From: Antedon mediterranea
Lineage: Eukaryota > Animalia > Echinodermata
Assembly: GCF_964355755.1 (NCBI RefSeq)
Contig: NC_092672.1
Location: 19,543,237-19,607,236, forward strand
Reading direction: 5' to 3'
DNA: 64,000 bases
Each line of letters opens with the position of its first letter. Position 1 is the stretch's first letter. A program made the position numbers and the translations under genes. Shown here piece after piece: positions 3,001 to 42,100 of this stretch. The notes beneath the pieces are model-generated. The model was given only the letters and a program-made list of their open reading frames with translations, was not told the origin of the DNA and did not search any database.

Positions 3001-6000
3001 TTTGATAATGCATTTTTTCTCATATATGTATAATTTTCTAACAATTTGAATAAAATAGGTGTTTATCAAGTCAATACTGTATTCAAATTTAGAAACAGCT
3101 TAATCACAAAATAATGGGATCATTGTGCACTTTGTAATATTAATAATTCATTATATGATGTATTGATACTTTAACACTTCTTTATTGTATCTTGAACTTT
3201 GTTGTTATCATTGATACAATAATACATGAATCAAATGTCAACAATTATAGAGCATTCATATTAACAGTTAATGTTGACTGATATGATTTTACTGTACCTT
3301 TCATCTCATCTTGAAAATTAAAAAAGTAAATAAAAATTAATCAAATATTAAAAATAATTTAAATATAAAGCTGATGATATTGATTGCAATTTGCCTAATG
3401 AGGTTTGATGATGAAAATAAGAATTCAGCAGGGTGAATTTTCAATGCGAGATGTAGGCATAAGTAATAATAACCTGTCATTCTTTTAAAATACAAAATAA
3501 ATTTGCAAATTGATGGTAAATACCATTTTAAAAGAGTTTATATGAAAGTATTTGTATGAAAAAATTGAATTATCATATGCATTTATTATTTTTAGAATGG
3601 ATCAACACCTCTGATTGAAGCTGCAAATAGGGGTTTTCACGAAGTCTGCTTGGTCCTTCTCAATAAGGGAGCTGATGCAAATCAACAAAACAAGGTACTT
3701 TCACACATTGTATTTTAAAAATTTTTAAATACATAGGTGGACAGTACATACTAATAACAATTTATGTTTTGTCATTGATAATGGGATTGTAGGATAATTC
3801 AAAATTATTACTAGTTCAAAATCTAGACTAGTAGTATATTTAATTTGTTTGAAAATGTATACCACAAATATTTGTTGACATGTGCACAACAAATAGTTTG
3901 TTTATTTTGCCTAATTTATCACTCAACTTTGTTACTCTATTTTGTAAAGAAATTAATCAGAGCCTTATCATTAAATGTTTACATTATTTATATGCAGTAT
4001 GTTTATTTACATATTTCTTGGTAGCAGAAATGAAGCTCACCTTATTCTGTCATATTTCCTCACAGTGGTTTGAATTCAGTACATTGCATTTCATATGCCG
4101 TTTCTTATACCTTACTGTACTGTATATTTTTCCCCCTTGACCATAACAAATATTTAAACTTCAATTTAAAAAAAACAATTCTTCTTTTCTATTGTTTGTA
4201 GAATACTGATACTACTATGTCTTGTCACTCAATAAATATTATTTACCACCAAAAACGTACATTGCCTCATACTTACCTATATTTTCCGAGAACTTTACTT
4301 TTACCTGGAAAATGATTTAAATGAAAAGAAGAATAATTACCCAAAAAAGGTGAAAATCATTATGTAGTTAAATGTAATAATGAGGGCACAATTATTGTTG
4401 TTATTTTTTAGCCATTTCATGCATGGATTACCACAATGCTTTCTTATTTATGTTATAATCTGTTTTTAAAAATGATTTGATAATAAATATCTGCTAATTA
4501 ATTAATTAATGTATGTTTAAAATAAAAAAAAACAAAAATGAAATTAATTCTAAATAGGCCATGTGGTTTTTCTTGGTCAGAATAGCATATAGCTTGTTAG
4601 ATTGAATTAATTAATGGAGGTTTGCGCAGGGTTTTTGGGGTTTGTGCAGTTTAGCAATACCCCTGTGTTATTGATCTTGATCATCAAGTTAGTGAGGGTT
4701 TTAATATATTCCTGTCAGTCTGAATGGCAATATGCTATATGGTGACAAAAATAATAATACATAGCCATGTCCTATATTGAATCCCAAATTCATAAGTTTT
4801 TATGTAGACTTTGACAATATTATTTGCATACAAACCAGCAGCCACTTCCAGAAATGAGGCACTTTTGCGCTACCTAACAGGTAAAAGGCAACGCAATAGG
4901 GGGCGCAATTGCGTTTGCAAAGGAGTTCACAATAACACTAGAAGCTAAGTTTCTCAAAGGTATGACCCCTTTTAGCAATGGGCTTAGCATCCAGTGAAGC
5001 TAAAATCCTCTCTAAAATTGTGCGATAAATCGTGACATTTTGATGCCGGACATAACTACTAATTTCACCCCATCATTTCCCACACTTGTGTTACCAAGTC
5101 CTTGGTAATATACCTCATAAATGCTGCACCTCCCCGTATGGAAATATTTAACAGTGGCTTTTATATTCATACAGCAGAAACTGGATAACAAGATATGAAG
5201 CAACAAACAAAAATTTATATAAAAATATCTTACACAAAGAATGAATAGGTTCACATTAAAAAAAACTTATACATTCACTTTGTGATTGGCCATTGTATTG
5301 GTCTAAGTTTAAAAATGACTTCACAAGCTTTGTTCAATCGCATTTTAAAAATAAACTTTCAATGAACAATTCTGATAATTATTAGAACTGTGCATACACT
5401 GGACTTATACAAATGCACAGATTAATTGTTTGTTTTTTATAATCGTCTACCGACTACTGTATCATGTAAAACTTTTAGGTTCCTTACTCCAAACATGACT
5501 TTGAGTTAACAACTCATAAACTATTATTTTTTTTATTGTTGAAAGAGAAATTGAACTTGAATGTATCACCTGGTTTCTACTTACCGTATACATCCTTGAA
5601 ACTCATCAAGATGCAGATACAATCACTCATAAAGTTATACAATTTATTGTAATACTTCCTATTATATTGTATACGCATATTTCTTTTAATGCAAAATCAA
5701 TCTGCAAATGTTGCATGGTTCTTATCATCAGACCAGGTACATTGCACCTACTTTTATTTCATACTTTTTTCAAACTCATTGTCAACAGTTCTTAAACAAA
5801 ATTGACTTCATTGTCTGTTTAAATATTTTGATTTTGATTATTATAATTTTTGATATGAATTGATTTTTTGTAAAACAACATAATATTAAGTACGATCTAG
5901 TGAGTGAGTGGCCGAGCGGTTAAGACAGTGGAACCGTAATTACGTAGCCATAACATCGGCAGGGGTTCGAGGCTCACTCACTCCATGGGTCTGGTGGTAG

Positions 6001-6178
6001 AACGAGTCTTCTCGGATAAGGACTATAAACCGTAGGTCTAGTGTACACATCTAGCTCGTGTGCACTTTAAAGAACCTAGTACATCTTTCGAGACGATCAG
6101 TAGGGGGTTACCCCGGTGTATTAGTACATCACAGCCACTGATCACCAACTGGGCCCTCTGGGAGATCAGTCTTTGACT
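1..6178 (+). repeat. Recent segmental duplication, copy 1 (extends beyond window start)
   Basis: Colinear with 27415..33592. Only three substitutions noticed by eye (585/27999, 5675/33089, 6166/33580). Confidence 0.97.
3596..3694 (+). CDS. Ankyrin-repeat exon A (99 nt, phase 0/0)
   Basis: ttttag|...|gtactt; NGSTPLIEAANRGFHEVCLVLLNKGADANQQNK, one canonical 33-aa ankyrin repeat. Confidence 0.93.
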
Positions 6179-9100
6179 GAAGAGGTTACCCAGTATAAAG
6201 ATAAAACAAACAAACAATGTGTTTTTTGTTTACCGTTTATAATTACATTTTTAAACAATAATCCTTCAAATTCTAAATAGCCTATAGGCCTGTAACTTAC
6301 CTTACAAAATACTTTGTACCTTTATTATCATAAATATTCTGATAATAAATGTTCTGATCATGTTATTTATAGTTTACCCATTAGTCTAGCCTAGCTTGAC
6401 TGTTCCTTCTTCATCCTCATTCACCGCAATTTTCCGAATTAGGCCTAGCCTTGCACACAAAGCAATATTCATAATTATATTAATTATTATTATATTATTA
6501 TTGAGTATGGTGGTGTGATAAACATTTTAATAAATATATGCACAAAATAGTTTTCACATTGTGTCTGGAGAGACCAAAATAATAATAATATATATGCCTA
6601 GGCCCAGTAAAGCTTAGTATCAAAGACCTAGCCTACGTAGGATACGCACGGCGGGGGCGGGTGTGGTAGGCTAGACTGATGAGGAAGGGGGAGGGCCGGG
6701 GAGTCTGGCAAGGCAGGCTGCTGTACCTTTTTGACTTGCAATGCTACACAAATATGAGCTTCTTAATATCATATAACCATAACATCTTTATTATTTTGTC
6801 TGTTTTTGTTATTGGATGCATCCATACATATGGGGAATAGAAAGTGACCGCAATTAGGGCAAGGCGCCTGGGGGTAATGAGGTATCAAACTGACTGATTG
6901 TACTGTGAAGTTTTAAACTATAATTGTAACAGGTATTCTGTATTTACTAGTATAAGATATGTTTTTATTCAACTGTGATATTTTATGTAAAGGTTGTCAT
7001 TTTGTTTTTTGTTTTATTATTAACAAAAATGTGCATTTCTCTAACATATTTATTTTTTAAATGTTAAATAGAATGGCGATACAGCATTGCATGTGGGTGC
7101 AGGATATGGTCATGTCGATGTCTGCCAAATGTTGGTAGACATGGCAGCAGCAGTGGACCAACAAAATCATGTAAGTCATAAATTAATTTTTGCATTGAGA
7201 ACCATTCAGGATCAGAATCCTAAATTTTATTCATTTTAGTTTAAAATGCTTGTTCCTCAAACAGAATAGCACAAAATGTAGCCTAAGAATGTAATTATTT
7301 TATTATGGTATAGAGGCTACTTGTTAATACCTTCATATTTTTTTCTTATTTGAAATTTTTATTAAATTGTCTAACTATTCTACATCTTGAATTTAACATA
7401 TTTATACCATCAAGATTGTGCAGACAAGTCAACATTAACAAAAAAAATAAACAAGTTTAAAATGCTATTTTTTGGGCTATTAAAAAGCTGCAGTTAATCT
7501 AGCAATCATTTGGTGGATTACTGTAATTTAGTTATTCTCTATTAAATAAATGTCATGAAAACTATAGCGCTTAGATTGCTTAGTGCTTGAAGTTGCTTGT
7601 TGGTATGACAACTACAACTAATGCAGATCCTGCATTGTATCTGTCTCAGAATATTCTTGTTTAATCAATCTTTTTTAAACTTTTTTAATCATTACATTAG
7701 TAATGCTCATTTTAATACACGATTAAAATATTATTGAATGCATTTCATGCATTTCTCATTTGTTTCATGCTGCACAATTTTGATGTGTCAGGCACGTGTC
7801 TGATGGTAATGGTATCTTGGACCTTGTGTGAATGGATAAAAGGCAAACAACTTTGGGGAATACATTTTTGTTATACTGATGTTGTCACAAAAGTTTGTAG
7901 TTTTTCTGATTTCAGGATATGTTATTTGTAAAGTAATGGCATAAAATTTAAACTGAATTCAAATTGAATCAAATATTAAACTTCTTCTTCTACTAAAATG
8001 TAGAGTAGACATTACTCTATACATTGATATAAAGAATTAAATGTTTGAACAAGAAAAACTGTACTTTTAGCTATTTTTTTATCATACCCTACCTAAAATT
8101 GTTTAATAATCTAGAACTCAGTGTTTTGTTAACTTGTGTTCGTACATATTCATAGCTATAAACATGTGCATAACGATGCTTAAATTAAACAGAGTTATAG
8201 GCCTACCTATTATATATTATATATGAGAATTTTATATAAATCATACTGTAAATTATAGAAACAGTGCTCATATTCGGAACATAATCTCATAATAGCTCAT
8301 TGGCGAAAGTTCCATACTTTTTAGTTGTATGAAATAATGTCTCTGGCGGGATTCGAACATGCAACCTCTCGCTTACAGAGCGAGTATCATACCACTAGAC
8401 CACAGAGCCATATATGTTATTTTCACAGATTTTCTCTCATACAACAAATGATATGGACATGTTCATTATTTAAAGATGTATTGTCCCCCTGAACAATTTT
8501 TTTTTACATTTTTTTGTTGATTATGCCATTTTAATATCATATAATAGTTATCAACTTTGACCAAAACTTGGATTGGAAAAAAAATTATTTACCTGAAAAA
8601 ACTGTAATTTAAAGCAAACAAGTCAAATTGCCTGCCAGCCAATGGATTTTTGGTTTGGTGTCATTGTAGTGAAAACATGATTTTTTCTTCGTTTTTTTCT
8701 ACGCAATTGATTAACTTGATTAAAACTACAAATAACCTATGAAAGTCTGATGTAATTATTCTTCATTTTTTCACGTGGGGGACAATACATCTTTAAAAAA
8801 ACATAACCTAATGTCCTTGTTCTACATGGAACCCCCGCAGTTTAAACGCGGACAAAACCACAGAAGAATAGCTTCTCTTTGTTGAGCTATACTTGCTCAC
8901 TTTATTTCTATCCATCCGTTCATCCGGTAAACTAAAATAAAAACAAACAGAGAAACAATTGACACGGCGCCGTGAAGCACGTCTCTAACGTATACTACGG
9001 CTTATCATACATAATTCGCCGTTAACATGGGCATACTATCATCATTATGTCTATCAAACCTAACTAATTCATAAGTAAATAATAATATAAGATTGTCTCC

Positions 9101-21100: not shown

Positions 21101-24100
21101 AAAAACTGGAATAATAATAAAAATGTATACAAAAGTAGAAATAAAATTTAAAAAAGCTAATTTGATAGTATTTGTGTGCATTGCGTATATGATCACAACA
21201 CACACAGCAAATACAAGTTACAAATTGAATTTGAAAATTGACACTTAATGGATGTATAATTATATAAAATATTAATTAACCAATAAATATGTAAAAGATT
21301 AACTTGTATGATTTTATATTTTAGTTTGGAGAATCAGCTTTGCATTGGGCAGCTAAGGCAGGTCACTCAGCCTGCTGTAACCTGCTGGTTGATGCAGGGT
21401 CAGACATCAGTATCCAAAACATAGTAAGTTATACATTCTTTCATAGTCATATTTTTTGATATTTTGTATTTTAAATATAATGATCTTTTGAATAATAATA
21501 TCTGCATGTTATAATGCTATTTAATGTTTTTATTTAACTGTATTGATGCTAGAATTGGCATTATTTGAAGTTTTTCAATATATTTTTTTCTCTGATATTT
21601 AGTCATAAAAATTGCTATGACACTATACATTTTGTCATGTTTAAACATTTCCATTGAACTCTTTATAAAACAATAAAAACTACAGCAACATACTATTGAA
21701 ATATAATCCTTATTCCAAAGTGTAGATATACAGTAATTAAGTCGGAATTATGTACACTTCTATTACACAAAATTTCAATTTTTTTTAGTTCATTTTCACA
21801 AAACTGTTTAATAACTTTTGAAACACTATGATTCTACCTATATATCACATAGAGGTACAAATGATCAAAGATGCTAGTTGATAGACATATAGACTGTATT
21901 CATTTATTTTATAATTATTATCATACTCATTTACCTTTATTCCTTTCAACAACATCACCACCAACTCCAACCACCTCCTGGTTATAGTAACCACCACCAA
22001 TCCCAAGAATGATGATGCAGAATTTGGTTGAGAGCTAAAGTGATCTTTTAATACACACCACAATTATAGTTCTTTGTTATTAGGTTGTAATTATTTTTTC
22101 CATATACAATATAAGATACAGATAGTATATCTGCCACATTTATTCTTTCTTTATACTCAGGATTAACAAACATAAATAAAACTGAAATAGCGGCACAAAT
22201 ATAATTTTTGTAAGTTATTTACCGTACCTAGTTTTTAACAAATCACCTTACATAATAATTACAGTATCAAACCACCATTACAATGTCATACAAAATAAAA
22301 AAATAAACAAATCATCATTAGCATAACTAGGTGATGATTGATCCATAGCAATATTTTTAGTCTATTTAAAAAAATGTTTATTTCTTAAAATTTATTTAGA
22401 TATACATACACACATAGTAAATTATAGTAAACAAAAAATAAATGGAAATTGTTTAACACTAAACAACCTACATTAGAGGTGAAATACCACTAAGAAACAC
22501 AAGAAAGCTGAACTTAGACTTAAATGTTCTACACAACTGTAACAAGTTCAGAGTGTATCCAACATTTAACATTATGACATATTTTAGACCACTGACAATG
22601 GTGATCACCAGTGCTTCGCAAAGTCTGCAGTTGCACTTTATATCATGTTTTATTCATTCATATTTATCTCCATCATCCAACTTTATCAAACAAAACCTTT
22701 TTGAGGATAAACATACAGTAGCTATATGTAAGGTTCAACTTTAATAATTTTAAAAAGTTTAACATTTTCTAACATTAATGTTAAAAGATTACTTTTAAAA
22801 GAACTTATATTATAATTTCAATTTTCAGTACAAGCTATTTAACAATTAAAAAAAAATATATGCCAAGTTATTGTAGCATAACTTTATATTTTAATCAATG
22901 GATGTAAATGACTTTGCATTATATAAATGTATTAGAATTGTTTATAAACTCTTAATTGTTGTAGATTCTATTTCAGTACAACCTTTTTTTAAAACTAATA
23001 TTGACCTTTGTTCATCCTTGTTTCAGTTTGATAGTCCTACCTTTTCAATAGAATTACATTCATGTTCACAGAGTAAATTAAGATTTATCTCCTTTAAAAT
23101 TAAATTCAATAAAACTATATCCCATAACAATTTTCCTATGAATAAATAGATGGAATTATTCTTAGTTTATTGATTTGATTCAGACCAATTTCATACACAT
23201 TTAGCAATATTTGTTTCATTTTTTAACTAATAATATGCATAGAAAATGTTTATTTTACAACTACAATACCTCATTAAGTAATTCATTTATTTACTTTTTT
23301 ATGGCTTTAACTAGTTGAATTCTCTCATGTTACCAATATAAAGTCTTAATCGGTAATAAATTTCTATTGATCATACATTCTAATAAGTTATGTTTCATAA
23401 TTTTTTTGATTTTATTGTGTTACAATAAAGGAAAAATAAACGGTGTGGGAAAAAACATAATCAGATGACTAAATATATGTAATATAACGTTTTAATACAT
23501 TTCTGGTGTTTTTGTGCAACTTCAAATTTTTATTTTTGTGCTATAGTTTAGTAGTAAACTAAATTTATCTTCCCATTTCCACCCTTTAAGACAGAATAGT
23601 CCAACTTCCCTTCCCCTGTAGTAGAGCACCGTATCAAGAATGTTAAATAACAGACAAGAGACATAAAATTGCTTGTCTACATACACTTTATTCACAGTAC
23701 ACATATGGCTGAATGCATATAACAACATTACTATAAGCCCAACAACTGGGAAACCTTTAACATGTGGCTTACCTTTCATTGGTCATGCTTTATAACAACC
23801 TACCTTAAACCCCTGCGTTAGCGGCTAAGGTAACACCAACCCAGCGAATGCTATGCAGTCCAAATAGATACTTATTGTACCCACATCTTCGTAAAATATC
23901 CTTAAACAGCACGGCAGCGTGAATAGGACATCTTTCTAGCATGTGGCTACTAGTCGATTTCACTGACTAAATAGTGCTAATGTGGTTCCATGCCTTCTAC
24001 TCTCTATATCAGCATGTATAAAGACCCAGGTATCGTGTCCAACAATAATGTCCAACCACCAATAGTTCTTGATAGTTCAAACACTGAATTATTTAATATT

Positions 24101-27100: not shown

Positions 27101-30100
27101 TACTAATATATTTAGATATTTTATTTGAGAAAAATTGTTGGCAGCCAATAATCTAATTAAAAGACCAAGGAATGATACTTCACTTTTTTCAATTAATTTT
27201 CCATTAAAAAAATATAACAATTGTTGTGTGTAAGTTCACTAATACAATTAGTTTTAGTCGTATTATTTAATAATTAGTTTGTAGTGAACAATTTACTAAC
27301 TTACTTAACTTTAAATTTAAAAAGTTCAACAAGACATCAATATTGTTATGAAAATATAAAGTTGTATCATCTGCATAAAAAAATATTGTGTCTGAAAGAT
27401 TTACTAATTATTAATTTGAAATAATGATTTCGATCTGTAAAATATCTTTTTAACCACGCTATGAAAGGCCCCAAAATACCATAACGAAACAACTAGAAAA
27501 TATCATGGTTAACAACATCAAAAGTTTTTGATAAATCTAGAAAAGTACTTTCAAATGCAGTATTAACAGAATTATATTAGTGAGTTCAAGAAAAGCATGA
27601 CAAGTGGTATTGTATGCATACATTTTTCATTATATTTTTGAAAAAATGGGTAAAATTAAGATTGGTATAAAAGTATCTATTTTTAAATACAGGATTTACA
27701 TTTAATATGATTAGGTACAGAACCCATCATGAATGATTAATTAATGGCGTATGTGAGATGGCTTATAATTAATGGAGCAACCTTTTTAAGAATCATGCTC
27801 TGAACCTTTACTAGAATTCAAATTATTAATTATATTAAGCACTTCTGTTTCAGATATAAATGAGAGGCTATATGGGAGGTGGTAATTAACAGATTAGGTC
27901 TTTGCCATTTTAGAATATAGAATTACAGAGTTTTACAAATGTGGCTATACTTTTTATCTTGAAATATTTGAACTTTTATGAATTTTTAAAAGTTTATGCT
28001 AATGTTTACTAAATTTATTTAGGTGGGGTGTGTAGAGGGTGTCATCAATAGTTGTTTTAGTGTTTTGGTTTTTTTTTAACTTCAAAAAGTATATAAAAAA
28101 ATGTATCCAACATTAGGATTAACTGTACAGTTTAGACGAATCAGTTTGAGAAAGATAAAAGCAAAATGCACCTATATCTGTAATTCAGTATCAATGGTCA
28201 AGAACGTCAACCTTATTGAAAGTTAATCATAATCAATTATTTTTGAAATAGGTAAATGATCAGAGATGTCTGAATTGTAATACCTGATGAAATATCAATC
28301 CATAAGACCATAATTTAACATCAAATAAATAGTCATAAAATTAAATCTTCTTTATTTTAATATATTCCTCTTTTTGTTTTCTTTTGAAAAAGGTTTTAAT
28401 ACACCAAGAAAAAAAAACACAAATATAAACATCTACCCTGTATACACATGGGGTCAGATCATCTTTCTATTTGACCTATTCGCTTCCCTTCAATATCTAC
28501 ATCCGTCGCTAGGACAGAATAATCTGGATTTTTTTGTTTTACATTAATCCAAGTTAATCAACTACCACACTTTATTTCAAATAATAACATTTTTTAGCTT
28601 AATTATTTTTTTGTTAAATGGCTGCATAATTAGTTATCCACACCTTGGCGGATAACTCCTTGTGATTGTATAAAATCATCATCAACTTTTTTTATCTGTA
28701 TTATTCTTCTTTCATTCCATATTTCATAACTTTGTATAGTTTTGTGCACCTCCTACTTTTTAAAAATGTCAGAGTTGCGCAACATGACTTTCGCACGATT
28801 TTATGAATTTAAATGATTGATCATAGATTAAAAACCAAACGTCATTTTGTATTGACACTTTTTAAATTTAAGTCATATCAAGAGTAACTTTCTGTGGATT
28901 GAAAATGCCATGCTTCACATAAAGTTACGCGCACAAGATTTTTTCTTATACCCAACACCTGCAATTGCTGTAACTAATAATGCGTATTTTCATTATAAGC
29001 CTTAAAAGAATTGAAAAGTCAATTAAACCATCAAATATTATTTTAATGATTTTACTGATTTTGATTTTAAATGTATTATGGCTACCCTTACAGTACATGA
29101 TGGCATTGTTAACCCTATTTCACATTGACCATTCTTATTATTTGAAATACATTATGGCTACTCATACATGCTGATTGCCTTCTTAACCCTATTTCACATT
29201 GACTATTCTTTTTATTGTACAAGTTACTAAATGTTTTAGTTTACTTAATTCACTTCCCACAACCTTAATCAATAATCACCTTGACAAATTTCAATATAAA
29301 TTTACCTCCTGGTTCATCCTGTTTTTCATCACTGTTTTCCTCCTTGTACTCTATTTGCACAAACATACTTTGCCTATTATATTATTCTTAATAGTGTTGT
29401 TGTTTACAATAGTGATGAAAGCATTAATTTTGAAAATTTCTGTAATTTCGCGTGGAAGTAATCATATTTATCTTAATTTATGTCATGTTCATCCCACCAA
29501 AATCTGATGATGAAAACAGTTACCATGAAATTAGTACTTATGTAGAAACAAGGCTATATAAAAAAGGATAGATTCAGGGTTTAACAAAATATATGACATA
29601 ATCAATTCTAACCGGCTGAAAACATCTATTGAAATCCTCCATACATTATGTAGAAGAGCTGACTATTGCAATATGCTTTATTAGTTGATGCCATTCCAAA
29701 AGATTGTAAGTATAATTAAGAATCATAACAACAATATGTCAAATTCAAATTCAAATATTCTTTATTCATCCTCAATCAAGAAAATATACAACAACAATAT
29801 ATGAGAACATAAAAAAAATGAAAAGGAATCACATAAAAACTCAAAAGAGCTTGATTAGTTGTGTACCCCTACGTCCCTAACTAGCCTAAAAAACTAAAAC
29901 ATAAATAATAAAAAAGCTGTGCATACATACTGTCTGTACATATTAAGGATGAATGTATTATAACAATTAAATAACACATAACACATAACAGCAAAATGTA
30001 TACTCATGCTTTAAATCAAAAGCTATTACTTCTCGTGTTTTGAACAAATGGAATGTTGCTCTCAACGCCCAAAACATAAATCCGATAAAGAAGGTGAAAA

Positions 30101-33100
30101 ATGAAAAAATATACTAAATTATAAAACATTACATAAAATTGTTTCAACTAACTTACAGCTGTATCTGGAAATTGAAAAAAATGAATGTTATATATGTGTT
30201 ATTGAAAATGAAAAGCATATGTTCTTATATTGTATACATAACAAACATTTTTATAGGAATAGACAATAGCAGAAGTTCATTTAAAGTAGGGCCTACCTCT
30301 TTAATGCAGGCTCAGATTGTCTACAGTATATACATACTGTATATACAGTGCAATGCTTTAAGTATCTAATACCTTGCAATTTTATATTCTTTTAACAATC
30401 ATAAATCATACAGGTTTGATAATGCATTTTTTCTCATATATGTATAATTTTCTAACAATTTGAATAAAATAGGTGTTTATCAAGTCAATACTGTATTCAA
30501 ATTTAGAAACAGCTTAATCACAAAATAATGGGATCATTGTGCACTTTGTAATATTAATAATTCATTATATGATGTATTGATACTTTAACACTTCTTTATT
30601 GTATCTTGAACTTTGTTGTTATCATTGATACAATAATACATGAATCAAATGTCAACAATTATAGAGCATTCATATTAACAGTTAATGTTGACTGATATGA
30701 TTTTACTGTACCTTTCATCTCATCTTGAAAATTAAAAAAGTAAATAAAAATTAATCAAATATTAAAAATAATTTAAATATAAAGCTGATGATATTGATTG
30801 CAATTTGCCTAATGAGGTTTGATGATGAAAATAAGAATTCAGCAGGGTGAATTTTCAATGCGAGATGTAGGCATAAGTAATAATAACCTGTCATTCTTTT
30901 AAAATACAAAATAAATTTGCAAATTGATGGTAAATACCATTTTAAAAGAGTTTATATGAAAGTATTTGTATGAAAAAATTGAATTATCATATGCATTTAT
31001 TATTTTTAGAATGGATCAACACCTCTGATTGAAGCTGCAAATAGGGGTTTTCACGAAGTCTGCTTGGTCCTTCTCAATAAGGGAGCTGATGCAAATCAAC
31101 AAAACAAGGTACTTTCACACATTGTATTTTAAAAATTTTTAAATACATAGGTGGACAGTACATACTAATAACAATTTATGTTTTGTCATTGATAATGGGA
31201 TTGTAGGATAATTCAAAATTATTACTAGTTCAAAATCTAGACTAGTAGTATATTTAATTTGTTTGAAAATGTATACCACAAATATTTGTTGACATGTGCA
31301 CAACAAATAGTTTGTTTATTTTGCCTAATTTATCACTCAACTTTGTTACTCTATTTTGTAAAGAAATTAATCAGAGCCTTATCATTAAATGTTTACATTA
31401 TTTATATGCAGTATGTTTATTTACATATTTCTTGGTAGCAGAAATGAAGCTCACCTTATTCTGTCATATTTCCTCACAGTGGTTTGAATTCAGTACATTG
31501 CATTTCATATGCCGTTTCTTATACCTTACTGTACTGTATATTTTTCCCCCTTGACCATAACAAATATTTAAACTTCAATTTAAAAAAAACAATTCTTCTT
31601 TTCTATTGTTTGTAGAATACTGATACTACTATGTCTTGTCACTCAATAAATATTATTTACCACCAAAAACGTACATTGCCTCATACTTACCTATATTTTC
31701 CGAGAACTTTACTTTTACCTGGAAAATGATTTAAATGAAAAGAAGAATAATTACCCAAAAAAGGTGAAAATCATTATGTAGTTAAATGTAATAATGAGGG
31801 CACAATTATTGTTGTTATTTTTTAGCCATTTCATGCATGGATTACCACAATGCTTTCTTATTTATGTTATAATCTGTTTTTAAAAATGATTTGATAATAA
31901 ATATCTGCTAATTAATTAATTAATGTATGTTTAAAATAAAAAAAAACAAAAATGAAATTAATTCTAAATAGGCCATGTGGTTTTTCTTGGTCAGAATAGC
32001 ATATAGCTTGTTAGATTGAATTAATTAATGGAGGTTTGCGCAGGGTTTTTGGGGTTTGTGCAGTTTAGCAATACCCCTGTGTTATTGATCTTGATCATCA
32101 AGTTAGTGAGGGTTTTAATATATTCCTGTCAGTCTGAATGGCAATATGCTATATGGTGACAAAAATAATAATACATAGCCATGTCCTATATTGAATCCCA
32201 AATTCATAAGTTTTTATGTAGACTTTGACAATATTATTTGCATACAAACCAGCAGCCACTTCCAGAAATGAGGCACTTTTGCGCTACCTAACAGGTAAAA
32301 GGCAACGCAATAGGGGGCGCAATTGCGTTTGCAAAGGAGTTCACAATAACACTAGAAGCTAAGTTTCTCAAAGGTATGACCCCTTTTAGCAATGGGCTTA
32401 GCATCCAGTGAAGCTAAAATCCTCTCTAAAATTGTGCGATAAATCGTGACATTTTGATGCCGGACATAACTACTAATTTCACCCCATCATTTCCCACACT
32501 TGTGTTACCAAGTCCTTGGTAATATACCTCATAAATGCTGCACCTCCCCGTATGGAAATATTTAACAGTGGCTTTTATATTCATACAGCAGAAACTGGAT
32601 AACAAGATATGAAGCAACAAACAAAAATTTATATAAAAATATCTTACACAAAGAATGAATAGGTTCACATTAAAAAAAACTTATACATTCACTTTGTGAT
32701 TGGCCATTGTATTGGTCTAAGTTTAAAAATGACTTCACAAGCTTTGTTCAATCGCATTTTAAAAATAAACTTTCAATGAACAATTCTGATAATTATTAGA
32801 ACTGTGCATACACTGGACTTATACAAATGCACAGATTAATTGTTTGTTTTTTATAATCGTCTACCGACTACTGTATCATGTAAAACTTTTAGGTTCCTTA
32901 CTCCAAACATGACTTTGAGTTAACAACTCATAAACTATTATTTTTTTTATTGTTGAAAGAGAAATTGAACTTGAATGTATCACCTGGTTTCTACTTACCG
33001 TATACATCCTTGAAACTCATCAAGATGCAGATACAATCACTCATAAAGTTATACAATTTATTGTAATACTTCCTATTATATTGTATACACATATTTCTTT

Positions 33101-36100
33101 TAATGCAAAATCAATCTGCAAATGTTGCATGGTTCTTATCATCAGACCAGGTACATTGCACCTACTTTTATTTCATACTTTTTTCAAACTCATTGTCAAC
33201 AGTTCTTAAACAAAATTGACTTCATTGTCTGTTTAAATATTTTGATTTTGATTATTATAATTTTTGATATGAATTGATTTTTTGTAAAACAACATAATAT
33301 TAAGTACGATCTAGTGAGTGAGTGGCCGAGCGGTTAAGACAGTGGAACCGTAATTACGTAGCCATAACATCGGCAGGGGTTCGAGGCTCACTCACTCCAT
33401 GGGTCTGGTGGTAGAACGAGTCTTCTCGGATAAGGACTATAAACCGTAGGTCTAGTGTACACATCTAGCTCGTGTGCACTTTAAAGAACCTAGTACATCT
33501 TTCGAGACGATCAGTAGGGGGTTACCCCGGTGTATTAGTACATCACAGCCACTGATCACCAACTGGGCCCTCTGGGAGACCAGTCTTTGACTTTACCCAG
33601 TATAAATATAAATTTCAATTTCAATTTCAAATCATTTTCTTTGCATCTTTTATTCACCACTGATGTAATAATGTTATGTTATTAAATGCAACTCTTAATA
33701 GGTCAAGGGTCAAATAATAAATATATATTGTTATTGTATACTATTTATTTTCACAAATTTTATTATTATTACTATATTATAACTTATATTATCAAGGTTC
33801 TATCTTTTATTTTTTAATGAATCCCAAAAGTTTGAGACCTGTCAGTCTGTAAAGCTGTGGACAGAGATAAAATCCTTTTTTTTGTATTATAAATAAAGCA
33901 TGGCTTCCTGAGCTCCATTTGATTCTTTCAAAGTTAAAATGATATATATACTAAAAGGAAAATAATATGTGTTACTAAGTCACGTATCCATGGTGATTGT
34001 GATGACAGGCCCAGACTCTATACTATACATGATATTACGATACCATCTGAATTAAATATTCAGCCAGTGTGCAAAAACTTCTGGATACTATTTAAGTTGA
34101 TTATCAATGAAGCATTCCTATAATTATATAATATGGTTCAAGCCACAAAAGAGAACAAAAATGACAGTGCATTTAACATCGTGTATAAGAGAATGACAAA
34201 TTTGAATAAAGTATAAAAGCATGAAAGAGTATAAGAGCATAATGTCAATACAGAGAAGAGATTAGTGGTTTTCTGTAGTTTGCAACGCCCTTTTCATTAA
34301 TTGGGTACGCTGTGTGTTACTTAGAGCATTGTCACACATTGCATACAAAAACAAGTCATGATATTATTTTATGCTCACAAAACTGAATTCAGAAGAACAT
34401 CAAGCATATATTTCTGAATAAAACTGAACAAAAATGAAATAGTAGTTTCTATAATTAAATTGCTTTTAAAAAAATTATTTGGGATTTACACTACCCATCT
34501 GAATATACATGCACCTTAATCTGAATACCTTATCCAACATGATTACAGTGTTTAAACAGCGAATAATACTATGCCTTTGTAGATTCATTCCATAACATAG
34601 TTTCATTCCATTAAAACTACAATAGTAACATTATCGTATAACCTATATAACCTACCACTTTTTAATAGAATTAACTGAATGCTATCATCTCTTTAACTAT
34701 TTAATACACAATAACATCTACCTGTCTATGATAGTGCAGCGTGTCAATCACAGCTAAAGACACCAGTTGTACACCTTTGTGTCTTATTATCCAATGCATT
34801 CCAACACAATGCTGCTCAGACACATGATGGGATCAGATTGTTTTTATATAATTGTCCTTTATTACTAATTATAATATTGACAACCATTCTGATGTTTATT
34901 CATAGTTGTGCAGAGCCATGATAAATACAATTGTCACAGCTTGAATAAGGTAACAGGGAGAAATTTAAATGAAAACCTTCCTCAAAATATTATTTCTCTG
35001 CTCAAATGCTGGATTGTAATGAGTTTTTAATATTAAATGTGTCTATATAATTTATTGTTTGTTAAGTAGGTCTTTTACCACACTGATGTTTATATGTGAA
35101 ATGGTTAAATGTATTCAGATTGAGATCTTTTGAAAAATACATATATACAAATACACCAAAAAAAAAAAAAAAAAAAAAAAAAAAAAGCATCTACCCTGTA
35201 TGTGATGATACACATGGGGTCAAATCATTTTTCTATTCGACCTATTCGCTAGGACAGAATAATCTGGATTTTTTTTTTAACTACCACACTTTATTTCAAA
35301 AGATAACATTTTTTAGCATAATTATTTTTTTTGTAAAATGGCTGCATAATTAGTTATCCACACCTTGGAGGATAACTCTTTGTGATTGTATAAAATGATC
35401 ATCAACTTGTTTTATCTGTATTATTCTTCTTTCATTCCACATTTCATAACTTCGTAAAGTTGTGCACCTACTATTTTTTTTAAACGTCAGAGTTACGCAA
35501 CATGACTTTCGCCCGATTTTATGAATTTAAATGATTGATCATATATCAAAAAACCAAACGTCATTTTGTATTGACACTTTTTTAATTTAAGTCATATCAA
35601 GAGTCAACTTTCTATGGATTAAAAATGGCATGTTTCACAAAGTTACGCGCACAAGATTTCTTACAACCAACACCTGCACTTGCTGTAACTTAATGCGTAT
35701 TCTCGGTTTGTGAACTTAATTCTCTTGAATTTTTCATTATAAACCTTTAAAGAATTGAAAAGTCAATTAAACCATATCTAATTTTATTTTAATGACTTAC
35801 TGATTTTGATTTTAAATGCATTATGGCTACTCATACATGCTGATTGCCTTTTTAACCCTATTTCACATTGACTATTCTTATTATTGTACAAGTTACTAAA
35901 TGTTTTAGTTTACTTAATTCACTTCCCACAACCTTAATCAATAATCACCTTGACAAATTTCACTATAAATTTACCTCCTGGTTCATCCTGTTTTTCATCA
36001 CTGTTTTCCTCCTTGTACTCTAAACGCACAAACATACTTTGCCTATTATATTATTCTTAATGTATATATAGTATAAGCCCATGGAGTAATTTATAATTCT

Positions 36101-39100
36101 TCCGTAAGCTTCCTAATTACATGTAAAGATAATAAAAGCGTCACATTTTGTATCTTATTTGTTTTGTGTATTTCAGTTATAAACGGCTACTACTGTAGAA
36201 AACATTTTTTTTGTACTGTACGGTAACTATTAATTTAAATAATAATATTTATTATTTGCATATCTACGGACGTACCATAATTTTCTAAATTCTTTTCAAT
36301 TCAATATGTTCTAGCAATACTTTCGAATTCGTAAATAATGTGTACTTGCTTTTTTAACTTCAGATTACGGACGATATACCTAAAGCAGGGAAAAATTTCA
36401 TTTGAAAATTTTGTTTAGCAAAATTGCTAATCAAACTGATTTTTTAGTCAAAAAACATAGTTTTGTATTGTATTTTTTGCTACACAATTGTAGAAATGTG
36501 TAGCAAAAAGGTTGTTTTGTATAGCTTTTTGCTATGCTACACTGGCGAAATTATTCCCTGTAAAGTGTATTTAAAATATACAGTAGTGTAAAATATTCTG
36601 TATTTATTTTTGTTACAATGAAAGTTACTGACCGTAAACATTCATGCATAGCCTACTTTAAAACATAGAAAATGAGACTTCAATTGCAACTCTTGCATTT
36701 TTAAGTTTAACTACGTCAACCTTAAAATCTGTTCGTCAGTAGGGCTCACACAAAGATGGGTGCTGATGCTAGTAATTTATATGATCAAATCATTTGATAT
36801 CTGCTGCTGCAGTTGAGATTCATACACTTTAAAGTAAAGTTTGATTTTATGTGATCACATCATTTCCCTATTATCATTTGATTTATAATTTTAGTTGTAA
36901 TTTTGTTGTTGTCGTCGTGGTGTATGTTGGTGAAACTAAACAAGATGAACGGATTAAAGAATAAAACATCTTACAATGTTTCTATGTTGTGCAGTGAAAA
37001 TAAACTCTTTCAGTGCAATATTATAGAAACTATTTTTATCAAGAAAGAGACCATACAAATACAAATGTTGTTTTATCCTAATGTCTAATACCAACCTTCA
37101 TTCAAAATCAATTATTTTTTTAGGTAGATCAAGATCAAATATAGTTCTGACTTGTTAATGGTCACATGCCAGTATAGTTTATTGGGCTTGCCAGTGACAA
37201 TGACAAAATATTTATTATTTTGGTCTACTATTACAGTAACACTTTTTATCAATTAATGACTGTATAACATATCAGTGCAATGTCCACTATTGTATTTTAA
37301 AAAATCAACAAATATATATATATATTGTTTTTTTATATTGAAACTGAGAAAGGCATATATTCCTGATCTAAAATTATTTTCACTTTGGGATATTTTTGTA
37401 AATTACAACTTTCATAAAAAAATATCATTAAAAAAAAAGACAACATTGTATGTCCGAACATAGTATAAATATTCACATGGTATAAATATATAATTTGTAA
37501 AATGCATCAGAGGTCGTACATTTACAAAATAAAAAGAAAAAAAGGAATTTACATATTTATTTTTATACAGAGGTAAGTGAGTGGCACTATAGCCTTGTCA
37601 GTGTAACTCTGTTATTTTTTTTTTCTGCTATAAATGAGTTAGGAATAAAATTGTCATGTGACAGAATACCAATGTAACATTTTTTCTTTAATCAGTATTT
37701 TAAAACCTGATGATTATGACCTCTTTCCAGGCTGGAAACACTCCACTACATTTACATTTGGCTCCTATATATAAGGATCCTACATTAGAAATGGTGACCT
37801 GTCTCATAAATAAGGGGGCGTCAGTGACATCACAAAATAAGGTAATATATATACAGACAATTTCAGTAATACTGTATGGCAACAATCTTTCACCTACTCT
37901 AGTAAATTATTCTATTCTTTTTTTTTCTTTTTTTTATATCTGGTTCATCATATAATTAATAATAATGATAATTATTATTAAATTGTGTGATTTTTGGTAG
38001 ACCTATTTAAAAAACCATTCCTTCAAAGATGACAATATCTACTATCACAGCGATTTTAAACTGATAGGAAGATTGTGGGTTGTATAATTTATGCTGAGAT
38101 TGGACCTATCGGATATTTCGACGACATGAAGTAATGGCAGTGGGTAGAGATAATGTGCCCGGCTTCATAAGTTATTTAATAAGGGCGTTTAATCCTATAA
38201 CCTATGCTTCATTATTATACTCTGTAGCCACCAGTATTTCAATACTGATCTACACATGCGCACAGCTCGAATCTGAATTAAATGAAAGAAAGAATATTTA
38301 ATGTTATTTTTTGAACAGATTTCAGGATTATTCTCAATGTGTAATTCAATCTAGAAATTGACATTGAAATCTAAATCATTCAGTTAAATAACTCATAAAG
38401 AGCAGACCTCCCAACTATGCTGATAATGGCGAAAGCAATTTTGAATATACAGAAAAATATCCTGATATTTCTAATCTCTATTAAGACTCTAGATAAGAAG
38501 AAAAAGAAAATATGCTAAATATCCGCACAACGTTTGTAATAAATTCATGTATTGTTTAATAATTAAAATATTTGTATTTTCCGCCATTTGGCATACCCAT
38601 ATTTACTATTATAAATACCAAAACCTTTACATTTTTAGTAGCGCCCTCTATGGTCTAATGTATTTTTCAAAATATTATAGCGCCCTGTATAGTTTGGACA
38701 TGATTTCATAAAACCTCCCAATATATCATTTGATTTGTTGAGAGGTGACAAACTTATAACAGCCGATTATATAAACTGAATAACAATGTATTTTACTTTA
38801 CTGTTAGTGTATTGTCAATTATAGGCCTTTTGCTTATTTCATAAAGACAATACACATTAAACAATGATTCGATAAAGATTGAAATGTTGAATCATGAATT
38901 CCCTAATATTATTGTTGTTGTTGTTGGCGTCTTTGCCGCACCCAACATTTCCAGAAAAAAGGGTGACTATTTTTGGACAAAAATCACTCAAGCGTGACTT
39001 GTGTTTTTCACATGGTAATACATGAAATTTGATCACTAAAATGCTTTAATTGTTGCCATTAGGGTATGAAAACATAGGGTTTGCCACAAAAATTGTAATG

Positions 39101-42100
39101 AATGTACTATTAGGTTAGGATATATGAGTATTGTGAAAACATGGGTTTTATATTTTATTTGCATTAAAGTGATTGTGTTGGAAATAGATTAACATCGTTA
39201 CCATTTAAGATAGTTAAAACAAATTATTTTATCACATGTGAATTATGGAATTATTTTTAAGGATAAGATAAATACAGCGTCACACTTGACATTCTTCTTT
39301 CACAAAAAAAAAATTAAACTTCATGATTCATTTTTTTTCCACAGAATGGAAATCCTCCACTATATGAATACCTGATTGAAAACCCCAACCCTACTCCAGA
39401 AATTGTGAAATTTCTCATTAAAAATGATGGTGCATTATTGACATTGCTAAATAAGGTAATCTACAGAAAATTGTTTGAAATTGCTTACATAAATAGATGT
39501 AAATTTGATGCAGAATGATGAACTTTGAGGACGGTAATTAACAGAGCTTGACGTTTATTTCGTGACAAAAGTCGGCATCTTCCGCAGACCCTGTGCACTC
39601 AAGTTTAGTGTTTGAGAAGTTTCTGCATTAGAAAGTCTAGATCTTATTAAAAAGGATAAACTAAAAACGCCCAATTAAAACCTTAAAAGAGGCATACGAG
39701 GATGTTTGTTTATACTAATATAGCTAATGTCAAAAATGTAGAAACACTAACAGCTTTTAGTAGTAAATAAAAAGTCAACACCAGCTATGTAGAATCGTCA
39801 ACAGCTAATAGTAAGGAAATTTCCTCACAGCTAATTAGTTACTAATGCTATTATGTAAAAATATATATTTTACAAACCTATTTAAGAGCCATTGTCTGTA
39901 AAAATCAAAGATTTGGTGGCAGATGTAAAAAAATGGATTTCTCTCAAATTTTTACCATGAATAGACATTTCAATAAAAAGCATATCTACAACATTCATTT
40001 TAATTTTTAGCCTCCGTTGCCATGACAACGGTCAATTATCCAAATTTTGATGTTTTTGCCATTTTTCACAGATTTTCTATAGTGAAAAAGTACAAACTTG
40101 TATACTTATTCTAACCAAAAATACTTACAGTATACAGTTTTTGTTTATAGCAGTGTAAACAACATGTATTGAGTTCCATTTAATGTAGAAAAAAAAAAAA
40201 ATTACAAAATGGAGTTTGGTTGATACCATTATTTTAAAAAGGGGTGTTTTTAAAAAATATTTTTTTTATAAAAGTATACCTCATAAACGTACCTATAACT
40301 TCCAAAGTGGTGTTTTTAAATCAATGAGGTTTTTTAATTTGATAGTCAATAGGTTTGTCAACAATAATCACGAAAAAAACACTGGGGTAAATTTCGTACA
40401 TAGGTTTTGTGTTGCCAGGAAAATACAAAAAATACAAAAAATATAACAAAATATCAACAAACAAAACACATGAAACACAATTTAAATATGGCTAATTCAA
40501 TAATAAAATGTATATATGGCTTGTCATAATGCTACTAGAGTCATACGAATAGTTTAGATAAAATAGGAGAATGTGTTGCCAGGTTTATTTCATTTAATTG
40601 CCTGAAAAACAGTATTTTGCATTGAAATATTTAGTTGATGGAAAATAATGTTAAACTTGGAAATAATTGAGTCAATGGTTTTTATAAATTTTTAAATCTA
40701 TTTTGTGTAAAGAGATACAAAGACCTCCCAAAAAATCTGACCTTGTAAATAGGTCATTTGAGGTCAAAAGGGGTCAGAATGCAAAAACAGGACAGGTCCC
40801 CACTTTACTACAACTATTAATGTTTGATCAAAATTTACAAGATAGTTCATAACAATTCTCAACAATTTTTATATTTTACCTATAGTGTTACCTTAGCAAC
40901 CATTTCCATGTGTAACTAAGGAAAGTAATTTAAAAAAAAAACGTAAAAAATGGCGTTTTTATAAATACAAAGAATTGATTGCATTTGTAATTTTTCCCAA
41001 TTTGACTTCTACTGCATTCCATTAATGACAAACTTGACCTTGTAAATTCATTCATTTTGAGGTCAACATTTTACCATAGTAACTGTTTCTATGCGAACAT
41101 TTAAAAAAAATAAGGGGTTTTTCATAAATACAAAACATTTTTTCTACATAGTTTTACATTTCTACTTTTTGCCAAATTTACTTTAAATACTGAATCCTAA
41201 TAATCTCAGAAAGAAAGTCTTGACGAATCTGAATAAAGGTAAAAAAGCGTTTAGTGTTATCTTAAACCTGTTTACGTAACAAATGATATTTAAATATGGA
41301 GTTTCATGAAAAAAAAAAAAATTTACATATTGAGGTAAAATGACATCAACGTTTTACCTATAGTGTATTGTAGCAACTGTTTCTATAAGTAACTAAGTAC
41401 AATATTTTTAATATGGGGTTTCATGACTACAAACAATTGAATACATAGCTTTACTAACTTCCCAAATTTACTTATCTACTGAATCCCAGAAAATGTCTGA
41501 CCTTGTGAAAGGGTCATTTGTTGGGTCAAGTTATGTCAAAATGTATTATTTATGTTATCTTAGAACCTGTTTCTATGCGTAACTAAGGATAATTGTTTTT
41601 TTTAATACAGTTGAACCTCCCGTAAGTGGCCACCCTCGGGACCTGGAAAAATGGCCGCTTACGGGCGGTGACCCCTTACGGGAGGTTCTGCCGATAAAGG
41701 GCCAAAATCACTTATTATGGCTATATACGATATTCTTAACGAAACGAGCGTCTCAATTTTCCAGCTAATTGTAGGCCTATTATTATTTATAATCAGGTGG
41801 TTTAGTATTTTTTAGCATTTTCAGACAAATTTTAAAAACTTTTATCATATAAAAAATGGTCGGTCAAAATCTGTGTAGTTTTCTCATCTCTTCACAGTAA
41901 TGTTTTTAAAACCTCTTCAAAATAAAGCTAATATATAAAGAAATACAATAAACATGCACCTCTAATTCATAGGTCCATGCAATAAGTATCACATTTTTCG
42001 ATTGGCCGCTTACAAAAAATCTCATTTTTAGTATAAAAAGGTGCCCGCAGCTGCTTACGGTAAGCACCAAATGCACTAATTAGATAGGAAGAACAAACAG

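Follow-up and report, generated by a model that had tools for sequence, protein, structure and literature searches.

Duplication of one-repeat ankyrin exons in an ANK-ROC-COR-tandem-DED gene family of the feather star Antedon mediterranea

Repeat duplication in a crinoid ROCO gene

In a 64,000-nucleotide (nt) stretch of the Antedon mediterranea genome (contig NC_092672.1, forward-strand positions 19,543,237 to 19,607,236; hereafter the window, numbered from its first letter), we found an open frame of 21 exons and 1055 residues that combines ankyrin (ANK) repeats, a ROC GTPase, a COR domain, and a tandem death effector domain (tDED). The explanation that we favor, with a probability of roughly 60%, is that the one-repeat, phase-0 ankyrin exons of this gene are an ordinary animal pattern by inheritance and have been multiplied in this feather-star family by germline unequal recombination between intronic repeats. 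Inheritance of the exon layout is in itself likely. By analogy, the family is likely a fast-diversifying, immune-type sensor, a role inferred from its architecture and its expansion.

All six ankyrin exons have canonical AG/GT ends and phase 0/0, and each encodes one repeat (99, 99, 99, 99, 111, and 111 nt in order). The introns between them span 3377, 14154, 9586, 6622, and 1503 nt. These values agree with a preliminary description of the window, which had listed four 99-nt and two 111-nt exons, introns of 1.5-14 kb rich in transposable elements, and COR introns mostly below 600 bp; of the seven introns that follow exons 12-18, six are shorter than 600 nt. The contig depth of sequencing runs X2, X5, X6, and X10, compared over 3000-17300, shows high-copy elements in the introns: in each of three runs, the summed depth of 6/30 bins is more than 10-fold above the median. 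Run X5 was first guessed to be RNA; it covers introns and was treated as DNA. The junctions (QQNK/NG, QQNH/FG, and IQNI/NG) and helix-1 motifs (LIEAANR, LHVGAGY, and LHWAAKA) quoted earlier were likewise found, and every ankyrin exon is skippable in frame.

Exons 1 and 4 match at 99/99 nt; therefore, the array contains five distinct repeats rather than six. Because the 5' end of the gene lies beyond the window, six ankyrin exons is a minimum. The 33-residue repeat types share 33-39% amino acid identity with one another and differ in their last residue (K, H, and I), and four of the six exons start ag/AATGG. The Pfam Ank gathering score was passed by four of the five distinct exons, with exon 6 falling below it (E 0.026). 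The twin repeats of a paralog, P0018, are 59% identical to exon 6.

The identity of exons 1 and 4 is part of a duplicated block of at least 6.18 kb that continues to the left of the window (Table 1). Its two copies are equal save for mismatches at 585, 5675, and 6166 (99.95%). The identity stops in the final 50 nt of a high-copy element that starts with a tRNA-like head, and the tails of the two copies of this element differ. We infer that the ~310-nt element resembles a short interspersed nuclear element (SINE) from this head (5901-5985, at a relaxed ARAGORN threshold) and from its high copy number, as the summed contig depth of its bin is 84-933 times the median in three runs; Rfam searches with it returned chance matches only. 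Unequal crossover between two SINE copies would leave this combination of block end and differing tails, and the copy at the end of the first block is likely the hybrid junction copy. If the two SINEs had stood ahead of exon B and behind exon A, the crossover would duplicate a unit of 27,414 nt, and the proposed 27.4-kb tandem unit would carry three exons (B, C, and A); therefore, additional copies of exons 2 and 3 are predicted upstream of the window. This duplication of a multi-kilobase block, not of a single cassette, is the sole event visible in DNA.

No contig bridging 6178/6179 was present among the matches listed (32 of ~52,000 pieces), nor any exon 1-exon 2 joint (15 of 511 joints listed), and neither absence proves anything. 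The summed depths beside exon 1 and exon 2 are ~6,500-14,400 vs 5,200-6,700 in X2, 14-17 vs 40-61 in X5, and 171 vs 2,150-2,940 in X6; these contrasts would fit copy-number differences but are not copy number and were given no weight. A 932-nt contig of run X6 (organism B) covers exon 1 and its flanks (3104-4027) with 34 other letters and 46 gap letters; therefore, an exon-A segment is present in a second organism.

Possible traces of older events were also noticed. The regions 9353-17358 and 24342-34124, i.e., intron 2 and the surroundings of exon 4, show colinear similarity (~77-96%, offset ~16.7 kb) without an ankyrin exon in the former, possibly as an older duplicate minus its exon or as shared dispersed repeats. 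A 1-kb element occurs at 984-1978, 28398-29392, and 35150-36061 (77-97% alike), 1.6-2.6 kb upstream of exons 1, 4, and 5, and its near-constant distance may mark an older exon-bearing duplication unit.

Repeat turnover among paralogs

The proteins nearest to the window gene are other A. mediterranea models (COR identity 91-97%). In the COR tree, 18 distinct A. mediterranea models and the window gene form one clade apart from Anneissia (Shimodaira-Hasegawa-like approximate likelihood ratio test 99). Apart from these two crinoids and a sponge ANK-ROC protein (P0053), possible relatives were sparsely sampled. Ankyrin repeats could be parsed in 6 of the 18 models. P0029, P0023, and P0027 belong to a common subclade and share an N-terminal cap, yet they have 2, 4, and 8 repeats, respectively; a fixed exon order across paralogs, which the preliminary description had named among the observations that would refute its proposal, was thus not found. 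P0018 has five repeats and one partial repeat, while P0026 (two) and P0034 (one) are apparently incomplete at the N-terminus.

Similarity among these repeats lies mostly within genes. Among 27 repeats that have a same-gene neighbor, the nearest neighbor is in the same gene for 19, in another gene for 7, and tied for 1. The best between-gene identity is at most 66%, save for one positionally equivalent pair at 83%; no close between-gene twin was found out of position, and the closest paralogs have no annotated ankyrin exons. With twins defined as same-gene repeat pairs of at least 85% identity, they occur in 5/6 multi-repeat genes (window gene included) vs 3/37 named animal ankyrin proteins (Fisher p 3e-4), although many of these controls are orthologous to each other and therefore not independent, and two more were unparsable. 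Within-gene twins of 91-97% are present in P0040, P0109, and P0065 from oyster, mussel, and caddisfly, and Antedon is thus not the only invertebrate with recently duplicated ankyrin repeats. In the sponge protein (Oscarella lobularis), ~30 repeats of alternating types are present, with a best within-gene identity of 73% among 14 parsed.

The register of the duplications was tested on nine pairs, including that of the window. In all four adjacent near-identical pairs, both limits of the high-identity segment lie within 4 residues of the exon junction (starts -2, -4, -2, and 0; ends 0, 0, -2, and +2). A two-repeat block of P0027 was copied in the same register, its repeats 2-3 recurring as 7-8 (start +1, end 0). 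The r1/r7 pair of P0027 runs 10 residues past the junction, and a 73% pair of P0018 has no clear high-identity segment. Paralog twins differ by 1-4 residues. As judged from protein models, the duplication units of the paralogs appear to match the exon register of the window gene. The earlier proposal of exon duplication and loss is therefore upheld as far as repeat number differs among paralogs and duplications keep the exon register; its single-cassette event was not seen in DNA.

In Anneissia japonica, the P-loop lies at residue 221-236 in 6/12 matches, the other six being seemingly partial or divergent; this near-constant ankyrin length suggests that the turnover is lineage-specific. Tandem expansion also affects the low-complexity linker that joins COR to tDED in P0015, P0016, P0018, and P0023 (units of 5, 22, and 12 residues).

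Location of repeat variation

In the AlphaFold model of P0018 used as structural reference (mean predicted local distance difference test score, pLDDT, of 50; repeats ~70-88), the exon junctions map to non-helical loops. The most variable columns, 11-16, lie where helix 1 ends and the chain turns toward helix 2, in line with the helix-1 variation noted earlier. As binding positions, we took the six positions randomized in designed ankyrin repeat proteins (DARPins), which presumably face the ligand. Within P0027, variability at these positions exceeds that of the remaining columns (1.08 vs 0.50 bits; p 0.024 by permutation), and framework columns are invariant while helix-1-end columns vary.

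The hairpin-tip columns are not enriched for variability (p 0.73 and 0.50), and the upstream side of the hairpin has Q, N, and K in 17, 19, and 20 of 22 long-type repeats, respectively. For the long-type repeats, where the upstream side is conserved (K in 20/22) and tip columns vary no more than the others (p 0.73), we thus rejected the view that diversity stems mainly from hairpin tips created by new exon orders; such tips are a weak source of it.

Apparent exchange of the terminal tandem-DED exon

In several genes, the terminal exon groups differently from the COR domain. The COR of the window gene is 96-97% identical to those of P0011 and P0012, whereas the tDEDs of both are 17% identical to that of the window. 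The closest matches to the window tDED are in P0001 (83%), P0002 (74-75%), and P0003 (71%), all three on one different large contig; the COR of P0002 is 31% identical to that of the window, and P0003 is a ZU5 protein without COR. Similar discordance is found between P0013 and P0017 (COR 99%, tDED 48%) and, in the opposite direction, between P0138 and P0034 (COR 59%, tDED 90%). An approximately unbiased (AU) test rejects the grouping of the window tDED with those of P0011 and P0012 (p 1e-4). On the continuous window sequence, a linker exon of the P0011/P0016 type is located 443 nt upstream of the foreign-type tDED exon, and the switch point can therefore be placed narrowly. Given the discordant tDED and COR trees, the tDED exon appears to move between genes.

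The tDED exon family of the window also ends ZU5 proteins and distant ROCO proteins. Two tDED pairs in succession occur in models P0004, P0005, P0009, P0010, and P0022.

Gene model and other features of the window

The 21-exon model was inferred from splice signals and homology, and its domain order runs from six repeats and a capping repeat through ROC and COR to a 39-nt linker exon and the terminal exon (Table 1). With a ROC GTPase directly followed by COR, the gene belongs to the ROCO family. The COR-A matches arise on single exons. The model of P0018 matches LRRK1, LRRK2, and C. tepidum Roco, the latter two with E values of 7e-10 to 8e-9. The predicted fold of the terminal exon (pLDDT 88.9) aligns with the caspase-8 tDED over 154/165 residues (Z 15.5, root mean square deviation 2.6) and corresponds to two stacked death effector domains of the caspase-8/cFLIP type; a PDB sequence search with the tDED alignment gave nothing below E 0.18. 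Symmetric exons are general in this gene, as 14/20 introns are in phase 0 and the seven ROC-COR exons 12-18 are all 0/0.

Table 1. Coordinates of the duplicated block, SINE-like copies, and exons in the window.
Feature	Position	Strand	Description
Duplicated block, copy 1	1..6178	+	Continues past window start; 3 mismatches to copy 2
Duplicated block, copy 2	27415..33592	+	Offset 27,414 nt
SINE-like element, putatively tRNA-derived	5901..6215	+	Near-identity of block ends inside; candidate hybrid junction copy
Second SINE-like copy	33315..33625	+	5' part identical, 7-nt indel, other 3' tail
Ankyrin exon 1	3596..3694	+	Type A, 33 aa, phase 0/0; 99/99 nt match with exon 4
Ankyrin exon 2	7072..7170	+	Type B, 33 aa, phase 0/0
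Ankyrin exon 3	21325..21423	+	Type C, 33 aa, phase 0/0
Ankyrin exon 4	31010..31108	+	Type A, 33 aa, phase 0/0
Ankyrin exon 5	37731..37841	+	Long type, 37 aa, phase 0/0
Ankyrin exon 6	39345..39455	+	Long type, 37 aa, phase 0/0
Exon 7, C-terminal capping repeat	44473..44557	+	Phase 0/1
Exons 8-13, ROC GTPase	46226..54000	+	G1 GKEGAGKT, G3 WDYAGQ, G4 ATHVD
Exons 14-19, ROC end and COR domain	55277..57758	+	COR-A E 8e-7, below gathering score
Exon 20, linker	61906..61944	+	39 nt, phase 1/1; resembles linker of paralogs P0011 and P0016
Exon 21, terminal, predicted tDED	62388..62887	+	Predicted fold; Pfam DED E 7e-5

Other repeats are present in the introns. An 89-nt satellite (49490-53302; 43 copies, 96% matches) occupies most of a 6-kb intron within ROC, and a 43-nt tandem repeat (58072-58619; 12.6 copies) is found between COR and the linker exon. 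Three long inverted repeat pairs, at 24572-26455 (396 nt, 93%), 39841-43812 (613 nt, 62%), and 59443-61853 (890 nt, 74%), are likely non-autonomous DNA transposons; the last lies directly upstream of the linker and tDED exons.

Evolutionary interpretation and alternatives

In the process that we propose, unequal recombination across long, repeat-rich introns would duplicate single exons or exon blocks, and the inherited phase-0 borders would keep the products in frame. The phase-1 terminal tDED exon would be exchanged between genes in a similar way. Selection would act on the ankyrin groove, which would bind a variable ligand; binding would throw the ROC-COR switch in a GTP-dependent, NLR-like manner, and the exposed tDED could then nucleate a DED assembly with FADD or a caspase-8-like partner. 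The pattern resembles germline duplication of exons or exon blocks, for the most part inside one gene, rather than a free shuffling of cassettes: neither intronic nor inverted spare exons were found in the window, and hairpin tips are not especially variable.

Several points weigh against this explanation. Only two SINE copies lie within the window, no target-site duplication was seen at the SINE-like element, and the duplication continues leftward beyond the window. A close counterpart is missing for four of the five distinct repeats of the window, and turnover in this gene is therefore not constant. All paralogs were compared as predicted protein models, outside their genomic context; several of them lack the N-terminus, and errors of assembly or annotation could account for their twins or terminal exons. 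Alternative last exons downstream or mis-joined models could likewise give part of the tDED pattern. The AU group (P0011 and P0012, from the COR tree) was named after the trees had been seen, and the significant column set 11-16, which contains a gap column, was picked after the alignment had been viewed. Over all 22 long-type repeats, the variability at the DARPin positions is not significantly higher (p 0.10). Finally, mouse Ank3 shares the exon layout, the long introns, and the skipping of two repeat exons.

Some of these points would also fit a neutral by-product, which we consider a serious though rather improbable explanation: with an ancestral layout, a repeat-rich, segmentally duplicating cluster would gain and lose in-frame exons without selection for new specificity, and many copies may be decaying. 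Besides the non-significant enrichment over all repeats, the identical Ank3 layout, the generality of symmetric exons in the window gene, the expansion of low-complexity linker repeats in four paralogs, and the truncation of many paralog models are consistent with it. Against it stand the frame that is open across 21 exons with intact G1, G3, and G4 motifs and the contrast of invariant framework and variable helix-1-end columns in P0027. A sensor-switch-death architecture is typical of diversifying immune families. The fungal parallel for this architecture (in the accessible text of PMC4986451) also speaks against neutrality. An Ectocarpus-like system, the strong form of the preliminary proposal, in which single exons are freely exchanged between genes or combinatorially skipped, possibly somatically, for a receptor repertoire, is unlikely. 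The possible in-frame skipping of any exon, the apparent mobility of the tDED exon, and the different order of long-type repeats in the window gene and P0018 (where exon-6-like twins precede the last repeat) point in its direction; hairpin tips that are not hypervariable, the low between-gene identity described above, and the searches for spare exons point away from it. Nucleotide and protein profile searches of both window strands found no degenerate, intronic, or inverted ankyrin exons, the best non-exon matches being at E 2.4 (nucleotide profile) and, outside the array in the linker exon region, at E 0.025 (protein profile).

That the exon 1/exon 4 duplication is an assembly artefact in a static ankyrin domain, with paralog twins and tDED mismatches partly due to modelling errors, seems very unlikely. 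An identity of 99.95% with a boundary inside a high-copy repeat would fit such an artefact, but the three scattered mismatches and the different SINE tails speak against it; moreover, twins that are 1-4 residues apart are present in four further genes, which are distributed over three large contigs, and the subfamily-type linker exon precedes the foreign-type tDED exon on continuous sequence. Beyond germline duplication between intronic repeats, a farther-reaching version is possible, if doubtful: Antedon may have a ROCO-based counterpart of NLRs that is modular at both ends, with germline rebuilding, by SINE-mediated recombination of exon blocks, of ankyrin arrays that are polymorphic and positively selected between individuals, and with single-exon tDED modules swapped between genes of different chromosomes so as to re-wire sensors to other death pathways.

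Comparison with known systems

The exon layout has a close parallel in a conserved gene. According to PMC4449188 (Table 2), 14/20 ANK-domain exons of mouse Ank3 are 99 nt long and encode a single repeat, 7 have an ag/AATGG start, the longest intron measures 25.7 kb, and exons 16 and 18 are sometimes skipped; phase 0 was deduced from the tabulated splice bases and lengths. Ank3 and the window gene are thus alike in 99-nt one-repeat exons, a cut in the hairpin, an Asn-Gly start, and long introns. The preliminary description had rightly stated that single-repeat exons occur in ordinary ankyrin genes. Unlike the window gene, Ank3 encodes a fixed 24-repeat adaptor with no recent twins and no ROC-COR or tDED; in the ankyrin-3-like proteins P0096 and P0098, repeat-to-repeat identity peaks at 55%. 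As the layout is shared with conserved Ank3, the architecture is not diagnostic of turnover: one-repeat, phase-0, hairpin-cut exons permit in-frame change and are no evidence that change is happening. The symmetric layout thus loses the meaning of a shuffling signal that had been given to it, all the more as the COR exons are also symmetric, and the earlier interpretation is partly supported for reasons other than those offered. The practical lesson is the reverse of the earlier one: symmetric one-repeat ankyrin exons are ordinary, and turnover is visible only through twins, breakpoints, and paralog comparisons.

Among genes with a ROC-COR core, DAPK1, LRRK1, and LRRK2 are single-copy, whereas the Antedon family is multi-copy and fast-changing. 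DAPK1 has ankyrin repeats before ROC-COR and a death-fold domain after it. The Antedon gene differs from these three in having no kinase in the part seen and a tandem DED instead of a death domain. The A. japonica ANK-ROC-COR proteins belong to the same crinoid family, with the same G motifs and, in some members, a related tDED; they differ in the near-constant ankyrin length (6/12 matches) and in that twin repeats are not evident. A literature search (top-ranked results, with few subscription journals covered) returned no paper on a crinoid ANK-ROC-COR-DED family, and the accessible portions of PMC13449251, PMC8195603, PMC1553488, PMC1266365, PMC7286341, and PMC12314368 leave our reading unchanged.

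Brown algae (ROCO-LRR) and fungi (ANK, TPR, and WD NLRs) already provide examples of repeat-array diversification in candidate immune receptors. According to the available excerpts of PMC3341825 and PMC11378527, the brown-algal leucine-rich repeat (LRR)-ROC-COR genes resemble the Antedon family in being expanded ROCO genes with one repeat per symmetric exon, in the varying repeat number of recent paralogs, and in being candidate immune receptors. In Ectocarpus, 19 ROCO loci carry non-coding or inverted repeat exons (excerpts of PMC3341825), and its LRR exons are 72 nt long and in phase 2; Antedon has phase-0 ankyrin exons, a tandem DED at the C-terminus of the protein, and mostly within-gene duplication, and searches of the window found no spare exons in introns or on the reverse strand. 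A SINE-like element is located at the Antedon breakpoint, while Zambounis et al. report no sign of transposable element involvement in the brown-algal genes. Of the features of the Ectocarpus type, Antedon thus has one repeat per symmetric exon and, in predicted protein models, repeat number and order that vary between paralogs; spare repeat exons were not found in the introns of the window on either strand. The convergence suggested by the preliminary description holds for the former features and does not extend to the spare exons, and few signs of between-gene exchange of repeat exons were seen.

Fungal ANK NLRs, as far as the accessible text of PMC4986451 goes, resemble the Antedon family in combining a nucleotide-binding switch with an ankyrin array whose repeats are highly alike and vary in number, in variable sites that fall on the inner helices and the hairpin, and in effector domains that are used combinatorially. 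They have NACHT or NB-ARC with an N-terminal effector and C-terminal repeats, whereas ROC-COR is central in Antedon, and that text describes no exon-bounded units. Positively selected sites on the inner helices and hairpin and allelic length polymorphism have been shown for the fungal arrays. By the fungal threshold of at least 85% internal-repeat identity, twins occur in 5/6 genes, with the 100-residue cut-off of that paper reached by P0027 (three twins) alone. The Antedon gene is a true ROCO that appears to work like brown-algal ROCO-LRR and fungal ANK-NLR arrays and falls short of the Ectocarpus definition, with no spare exons and between-gene exchange unproven. If our explanation is true, array diversification would extend to animals through an echinoderm ROCO family that uses ankyrins, has a breakpoint visible in its sequence, and can swap its death-effector exon; this would bear on whether ROCO GTPases act as NLR-like switches, and SINE-mediated unequal crossover would provide a testable mechanism where the algal mechanism was left open.

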